Below, piece by piece: positions 22,601-22,669 of a stretch of DNA of 64,000 nucleotides. The notes under the pieces were generated by a model. It had not been told where the DNA came from. It saw nothing but the letters and a program-made list of their open reading frames with translations, and did not search any database. Every line of letters begins with the position of its first letter. The stretch's first letter is position 1. This DNA is from a virus. The stretch is from positions 1 to 64,000 of the IMG/VR virus record IMGVR_UViG_3300042883_000874; one strand, given 5' to 3'. The translations under genes and the position numbers were made by a program.

Positions 22601-22627
22601 ATCACGGTTTGTTGGTTTAAACGTGAT
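22601..22627 (+). ncRNA. Candidate small-RNA hairpin with loop GUUGGUUU
   Basis: atcacg(g)ttt-GTTGGTTT-aaacgtgat, immediately before a terminator. Loop is complementary to the AAACCAAC leader motif. Confidence 0.4.
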
Positions 22628-22639
22628 CTAACAAGTGAG

Positions 22640-22669
22640 CCCCCAGTTAAATATATACTGGGGGTTTTT
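22640..22669 (+). terminator. Rho-independent terminator
   Basis: cccccagt-taaatatat-actggggg followed by ttttt. Confidence 0.85.

Follow-up and report, generated by a model that had tools for sequence, protein, structure and literature searches.

A conserved 3'UTR hairpin of crAss-like phages as a candidate riboregulator of head-gene leaders

Why does an operon mRNA of a phage end in a hairpin whose loop is the exact complement of a word placed just before the start codons of other genes of the same phage? The locus that raises this question belongs to a virus record of 101,922 bp and falls within its first 64 kb; this stretch of 64,000 nucleotides is hereafter called the window. It has a GC content of 31%, contains no tRNAs and encodes a run of giant proteins of up to 3,673 aa. 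Searches of GenBank phages at the DNA and protein levels with the flanking region or gene returned no match, and the best capsid match reached 27% identity. It is to Leptolyngbya phage Lbo-JY46, the nearest cultured phage by capsid, which is followed by crAss-like and Cellulophaga phages. These capsid relationships place the virus in a deep, uncultured crAss-like lineage. To our knowledge, post-transcriptional control in crAss-like phages is almost unexplored, as is the tuning of translation initiation in hosts that make no use of Shine-Dalgarno (SD) pairing.

A hairpin-terminator module closes a Cys-rich operon

The interval 22601-22669 is the 3' end of a 7.4-kb Cys-rich (tail or fibre) operon. 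It folds as a module of roughly 70 nt made of a hairpin, a short linker and an intrinsic terminator. The features that define the module and its surroundings are the following.

1353-4121: portal gene
5559-7184: major head protein gene
15079-15113, + strand: terminator closing the head operon, which includes the 425-aa and 338-aa genes
21893-22588, + strand: 231-aa gene, the last of the Cys-rich operon, with its stop codon 12 nt upstream of the hairpin
22601-22627, + strand: hairpin, a 6-bp stem closing a 15-nt loop (fold and CM alignment)
22611-22618, + strand: loop core GTTGGTTT, exact complement of AAACCAAC
22628-22639, + strand: A/C-rich 12-nt linker CTAACAAGTGAG
22640-22669, + strand: intrinsic terminator with an 8-bp GC-rich stem, a 9-nt loop and T5
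22730-22738, + strand: promoter box TGTATATTT of the Bacteroidota -7 type, at the start of the next operon

The stem is formed by ATCACG (22601-22606) and CGTGAT (22622-22627), which enclose the loop GTTTGTTGGTTTAAA (22607-22621). The terminator arms CCCCCAGT (22640-22647) and ACTGGGGG (22657-22664) are followed directly by T5 (22665-22669), so that a GC-rich hairpin and a T-run stand on the transcribed strand, as in intrinsic (rho-independent) terminators. The 90-nt fold has a dG of -28.3 kcal/mol and a z-score of -4.3. A sequence-only reading of this DNA had reported the hairpin, the terminator and the AAACCAAC copies, and each proved correct in the sequence. Its statement that the loop presents the motif needs one qualification: four weak inner pairs (UUUG/UAAA) form in the MFE fold and cut the loop to UUGGUU, although relatives do not keep them and opening them takes only 1.9 kcal/mol. 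A search of 22400-22900 against Rfam 15 at a permissive E-value returned only sub-threshold noise, the best hit being His_leader with 21.5 bits against a threshold of 49 (E = 0.3).

The strong + strand terminators between 1 and 30 kb are only two, 15079-15113 and 22640-22669, and a promoter box follows each of them, which indicates that the hairpin closes the Cys-rich operon at 15140-22588. Since the terminator at 15079-15113 ends the head operon, the hairpin would reach the 425-aa and 338-aa genes in trans. Boxes of the form TGTATATTT(G) are located at 15116, 22730, 32922 and 38852 and fit the Bacteroidota -7 element. With the box at 32922 stopping 5 nt short of the ATG at 32936, the mRNA of that gene should have no leader or almost none.

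We also considered contacts within the module. Inspection by eye led us to reject an attenuator, in which the loop would pair with a terminator arm, since the arms differ freely among relatives. The linker often carries ACAA or AACAA in relatives, which is complementary to UUGUU of the loop, and a contact between the two could, on this slender basis, form a pseudoknot or mask the loop. The excess of such pairing over shuffled linkers is slight (4.1 vs 3.3 nt), it is not universal, and it is absent from the clade with the variant loop; we therefore did not retain the pseudoknot.

The hairpin is a conserved sense-strand RNA structure

A 16-mer scan of IMG/VR gave six true homologues amid chance matches, and a profile of the 198-aa protein encoded downstream of the module gave 80 loci at 41-63% identity, in which the element lies directly 5' of the 198-aa gene or one gene farther upstream. 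One hairpin with its terminator was found in each of 21 + 4 IMG/VR genomes, and one in the cultured phage Lbo-JY46 (26 genomes in total).

Conservation of the loop had been named by the sequence-only reading as a check on its proposal, and the outcome is clear: TTTGTTGGT is invariant across 36 aligned sequences, while the stems are free to differ (for example GUCGCAG/CUGUGGC, GAAGGAU/AUCCUUC, AGAGGG/CCCUCU and GUGGUGG/CUACUAC). A core, GUUGGUUU, is common to two loop types, UUUGUUGGUUU and GAAGGUUGGUUUA. The second is found in a sister clade (G021-G024; L273, L288, L307 and L308), in which the hairpin reads GUCACA / GAAGGUUGGUUUA / UGUGGC and is followed by the linker UGACUAGGAUGAA. The putative seed is thus more conserved than its surroundings, both in the 36 sequences and, through GUUGGUUU, in the variant-loop clade. 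In all, we distinguished the loop types GUUGGUUU, GUUGGUAU, GUUGGUUC and GUUGGUUG, and the leader types AAACCAAC, AAACCAAA, UAACCAACC and none.

In the CM alignment, 96.8% of cells are paired, compared with 18-57% in controls in which the partner was slid, and five of the six stem pairs show compensatory changes on both sides. G·U pairs account for 28 of 189 stem pairs, and the sense strand folds better than its complement in 25 of 28 distinct hairpins (-6.1 vs -3.1 kcal/mol, p = 6e-5). The G·U pairs and the strand-specific stability indicate that the hairpin acts as a sense-strand RNA rather than as duplex DNA. Terminators are present in the same layout in all relatives (-12 to -23 kcal/mol); their stems covary and their sequences vary.

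In 19 of 20 genomes a long ORF has its stop codon 2-17 nt before the hairpin, and a TAnnTTTG box within 90 nt upstream of it was detected in 1 of 20 genomes and not at this locus. Given the missing promoter box and the short distance from the stop codon, we assign the hairpin to the 3'UTR. The sequence-only reading had left the choice between a '3'UTR-derived' and an 'independent' RNA, and these data fit the former better than the latter. The upstream genes vary among genomes, so the module belongs to the operon end and not to a particular gene. As in 3'UTR-derived sRNAs, the hairpin lies downstream of a stop codon, has its terminator in common with the mRNA and does not need a promoter of its own. 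These data establish the module as a conserved, single-copy, sense-strand RNA structure with the fixed loop core GUUGGUUU.

The leader motif marks two head-module genes

The copies of AAACCAAC in the window and the leaders that carry it are the following.

4218, 7951, 7962, 15713 and 51062, + strand: AAACCAAC copies
22611 and 28537, - strand: AAACCAAC copies
4218-4225, + strand: AAACCAAC, 5 nt from the ATG of the 425-aa gene (4231-5508), which is next after the portal gene
7951-7969, + strand: doublet AAACCAAC-N3-AAACCAAC, ending 2 nt from the ATG of the 338-aa gene (7972-8988)
15713-15720, + strand: AAACCAAC, 1 nt from the ATG of the 61-aa Cys-rich gene (15722-15907)

The positions first reported are all correct, and only the copy at 28537 had been missed. 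The extended complementarity to the hairpin, described earlier as reaching 12 nt (7950-7961), 10 nt (4216-4225) and 9 nt (15712-15720), is exact at each site. The 61-aa gene belongs to the same operon as the hairpin, and its leader copy of AAACCAAC is kept in G001, G002, G004 and G005.

The window contains 7 copies of AAACCAAC against 2.45 expected, a number reached in 0 of 100 shuffles. In the whole 101.9-kb genome it occupies 6 leader sites, compared with a mean of 0.29 for the other 55 A5C3 permutations. It is the top leader word among the 56 A5C3 words in five of six near genomes (6-8 sites vs a mean of 0.1-0.4), where only its own register shifts approach its counts. The enrichment persists in most of 21 genomes, and AAACCAA ranks first among 21 composition-matched 7-mers in 14 of these 21. 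The motif therefore passes the check, set in the sequence-only reading, that it exceed composition-matched words at start codons. Over 2.18 Mb, 66 of 220 motif copies are in sense and at most 30 nt upstream of a called start, and a single leader copy is antisense. The density is about 1 per kb in leaders vs 0.035 per kb in coding sense (about 29-fold), and the gap between motif and ATG is mostly 0-6 nt, with a mode of 4-5 nt. The hairpin and the motif are both missing from the three Bacteroidota phages crAss001, phi14:2 and phi17:2. The motif is therefore not a general leader signal of Bacteroidota phages.

This strand bias bears on the possibility that one phage DNA-binding regulator recognises AAACCAAC / GTTGGTTT in duplex DNA in either orientation; a protein-binding site usable in both orientations had been the alternative offered by the sequence-only reading. 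The 8-mer does occur in both orientations in intergenic DNA, and other palindromic promoter motifs lie nearby. A DNA site would not readily account for the 66 sense leader copies vs 1 antisense copy, and the distance from leader copies to promoter boxes is variable, with copies also inside operons. The covarying stem moreover includes G·U pairs, which are A·C on the other strand, and the better folding of the sense strand points the same way. We regard a DNA site as very improbable.

The leaders of the two head-module genes keep the motif across the clade. When the 40-197 TIRs of a genome are ranked, that of the ~425-aa orthologue comes among the first 8 in 22 of 24 genomes and that of the ~338-aa orthologue among the first 4 in 21 of 25, whereas the adjacent capsid (MCP) gene, which has an equally A-rich leader, ranks 11th to 112th. 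The proteins themselves diverge to 37-47% identity while the leader motif stays. More than 570 IMG/VR contigs encode the 338-aa orthologue, and 59 further distinct leaders of this gene contain AAACCAA in 54 cases, AAACCAAC in 36 and two copies in 38. In the sister clade G021-G024 the motif is restricted to the leaders of the two head-module orthologues (426 and 330 aa), which rank 1 and 2. Sites complementary to the loop are thus conserved at the target TIRs, with Lbo-JY46, G016, G018 and G020 as exceptions. Comparison of the 425-aa and 338-aa proteins with PDB, Pfam and PHROG gave no informative match; the labels 'scaffold' and 'assembly factor' attached to these genes in the sequence-only reading were positional guesses, as the proteins match no family.

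The conserved loop and leader cores coincide

The part common to both loop types is exactly GUUGGUUU, the complement of the leader 8-mer. When complementary runs of at least 7 or 8 nt were counted, the real loop performed no better on the A-rich leaders than any U8G3 loop, and this match-length count was replaced by duplex energies. Among 165 U8G3 loops, the real loop was then equalled only by three other permutations that hold GUUGGUUU, all register shifts. At -10 kcal/mol or below the real loop reaches 61 leaders, compared with 11.5 +/- 9.7 for the other U8G3 permutations. Against pairing stands that, given the composition, such complementarity would still arise with a chance of about 4/165. 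Ranking duplexes with the whole hairpin opened produced long, implausible interior-loop duplexes and was uninformative; we replaced it by loop-only pairing combined with opening energies.

With the cost of opening both loop and target included, the top predicted sites are those of the DnaB-like helicase, 338-aa, 425-aa and 61-aa genes (-12.4 to -8.4 kcal/mol vs a median of -2.3). The last three, the targets named in the sequence-only reading, rank 2-4 of 102, and the target sites are unstructured. The leader of the helicase gene, which lies outside the window (L221 15530-16519, - strand; genome 79530-80519), holds AAAACCAACAAAUA, which ends about 10 nt before the ATG and is the best predicted loop partner in this genome.

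The main rival of a base-pairing regulator holds that hairpin and leader motif are functionally separate and that their complementarity is a by-product of a U/G-rich composition facing an A/C-rich one. The hairpin would then be a protein-bound 3'UTR element acting in termination or read-through in the manner of nut/boxB, in 3'-end processing or in mRNA stability, and the reader of AAACCAA(C) would be either the ribosome or a RegA-like translational operator protein. The equal match lengths of generic U8G3 loops are what this reading expects, and the loop has stayed fixed over a very deep divergence (27% identity between the MCP and that of Lbo-JY46). The hairpin always adjoins a terminator at an operon boundary, with a conserved promoter next. 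The motif is often in tandem, and its narrow spacing of 3-6 nt from the ATG (mode 4-5 nt) would also fit an element positioned by the ribosome or a protein.

Natural variants bear on this point as well, because the loop persists where the leader motif is absent or altered without compensation. In Lbo-JY46 (PP438436.1; L233 = 88500-95000), a syntenic hairpin and terminator lie on the minus strand at ~91,590-91,650, in a 410-nt gap; the stem is ATATAAA/TTTATAT and the loop is TTTGTTGGTTG, also written UUUGUUGGUUG. Despite this hairpin, the leaders of Lbo-JY46 carry no AAACCAAC at all. G016, G020 and many IMG/VR relatives have AAACCAAA leaders and an unchanged loop, which leaves only 7 bp, and the G015 group departs in its loop (GUUGGUAU) as well as in its leaders (UAACCAACC), through changes that are not compensatory. 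The T before the motif is kept in G001 though the G001 loop has C there. Across the clade the loop is almost invariant, and the few variants (the G015 group, L050, Lbo-JY46 and the AAACCAAA leaders) lack clean compensation. The proposal of a trans-acting sRNA that tunes translation is supported in part, by the conserved hairpin and leaders; the test for clean covariation between loop and leader failed in G015, G016 and G020, the genomes that allowed it, and Lbo-JY46 bears the hairpin without the motif.

Several observations nevertheless weigh against separate functions. In both loop types, the shared core and the complement of the leader 8-mer are one and the same sequence, and by energy the real loop belongs to the top 2% of loops with its composition. 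The motif is confined to the hairpin-bearing clade, although all these genomes form one clade and the co-occurrence of hairpin and motif is not independent evidence. No alternative pairing between the loop and a terminator arm is available and terminator sequences vary freely, and no protein has been put forward as a binder of the loop. Like lambda nut boxB, which works with N, the element is a small hairpin with a fixed loop sequence upstream of a terminator in the transcript. It differs from boxB in being a single copy at the operon end rather than after the promoter, 12 nt from a terminator and with a loop of 11-15 nt; no boxA-like element was seen near this single-copy, operon-distal hairpin. 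Functionally separate signals remain the strongest rival, which we consider less likely than pairing.

A model for base-pairing control of head-gene initiation

We propose, with a little less than an even chance of being right, that AAACCAAC leaders are bound by base pairing to the seed in the loop of this 3'UTR hairpin. The most likely effect would be weaker 30S loading, exerted in trans on two genes of the head operon and in cis on that of 61 aa. The Cys-rich operon mRNA would end in the module formed by the hairpin with its fixed U/G-rich loop, the A/C-rich linker and the intrinsic terminator. In a few phage genes, unstructured AAACCAAC stands 0-6 nt ahead of the start codon, and the loop core would pair with it there. 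Foremost among these targets would be the ~425-aa gene after the portal gene and the ~338-aa gene after the capsid genes, which belong to the preceding head operon and so would be acted on in trans. This phage may have two more, the 61-aa Cys gene, as a target in cis, and the DnaB-like helicase.

The Bacteroidota type of the promoters suggests an SD-independent host. There, the simplest consequence of an 8-12-bp duplex at -1 to -15 would be obstruction of 30S loading and thereby reduced translation. The output of the tail-fibre operon would in this way be coupled to the synthesis of two head-module proteins. The RNA may act within the full mRNA or as a processed 3' fragment, and its effect may be repression or activation. 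The hairpin is a good candidate for a phage-encoded regulatory RNA; pairing in vivo, the sign of its effect and a processed fragment are what we infer from the sequence data. Somewhat more tentatively still, we suggest a riboregulatory circuit spanning this crAss-like clade, in which an 8-nt loop seed at the 3' end of the tail-fibre operon mRNA would pair with the SD-free, A/C-rich leaders of two head genes and of lineage-variable genes and would couple tail and head synthesis at initiation.

Pairing could also be real and serve a structural or cis role, with the 3' hairpin contacting leaders within or between long late transcripts in a 3'-5' kissing interaction that guides processing or protects and organises polycistronic mRNAs, and not as a diffusible regulator. 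The 61-aa target lies in the hairpin's own operon, the hairpin has no promoter of its own, and at 2-17 nt from the stop codon it is within reach of the terminating ribosome. The two best-conserved targets, however, are in another transcription unit, behind the terminator at 15079-15113, and an 8-12-bp duplex is short for RNase III. A structural role of this kind thus appears improbable to us.

Comparison with known regulatory RNAs

The 3'UTR-derived sRNAs of enterobacteria include RNAs of the CpxQ, SroC, DapZ and MicL type. The base-pairing regulator proposed here resembles them in several ways: it has a seed in the 3'UTR of a protein-coding operon, much better conserved than the flanking sequence, it uses the intrinsic terminator of the mRNA, and its proposed targets are TIRs. 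It differs in that the seed is in a hairpin loop and is not linear, in that the host is probably a member of the Bacteroidota without Hfq-type biology, and in that both the candidate regulator and its conserved putative targets are encoded by the phage. In Staphylococcus aureus, C-rich loops of RNAIII and RsaE pair with SD sequences. The phage hairpin likewise has a short, fixed loop sequence with predicted pairing to the ribosome-loading region of several mRNAs, but its loop is U/G-rich, its target is an A/C-rich, non-SD leader and it is a single hairpin rather than a multi-hairpin RNA.

GibS and MasB of Bacteroides thetaiotaomicron are reportedly base-pairing sRNAs of an SD-poor phylum with targets around start codons. 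The present candidate would have in common with them base pairing, the SD-poor phylum and start-codon regions; those RNAs, in contrast, are chromosomal, independently transcribed and unrelated in sequence. Small RNAs of phages, such as lambda OOP, prophage DicF and the Stx-phage sRNAs, are cis-antisense or aimed at host mRNAs. The hairpin is, as they are, a phage-borne riboregulator, here a candidate, but its proposed targets are the phage's own structural-gene leaders, in trans. We know of no description of a conserved trans regulon consisting of a lytic phage's own structural-gene leaders, and searches of the literature on the motif, on crAss-like sRNAs and on Lbo-JY46 brought up nothing relevant.

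The locus thus offers a compact, strictly conserved RNA element outside Rfam and a conserved leader motif on defined orthologous genes. The two-component hypothesis can be tested directly, as both the seed and the target are 8 nt long and lend themselves to compensatory mutants, and the cultured phage Lbo-JY46 already bears the hairpin. Should the pairing prove wrong, two new conserved signals, the hairpin and the leader motif, would still have to be explained.

Other features of leaders and promoters

Two further observations concern leaders and promoters of this genome. Tiny basic ORFs (50-86 aa) with MAG, MAK or MKK starts and K-rich tails form a run at 9020-11689; nearly throughout, their leaders are A-rich, without the AAACCAAC motif. 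In relatives, a palindrome AAAGTTTA-N4-TAAACTTT lies ~20 nt 5' of the TGTATATTT box of the 198-aa gene (L003 3838-3885), and it may be the site of a putative phage transcription factor. The palindrome is degenerate in the window (22698-22745), and AAAGTTTAT is also found 5' of the promoter of the gene starting at 4231 (window 4165-4215).
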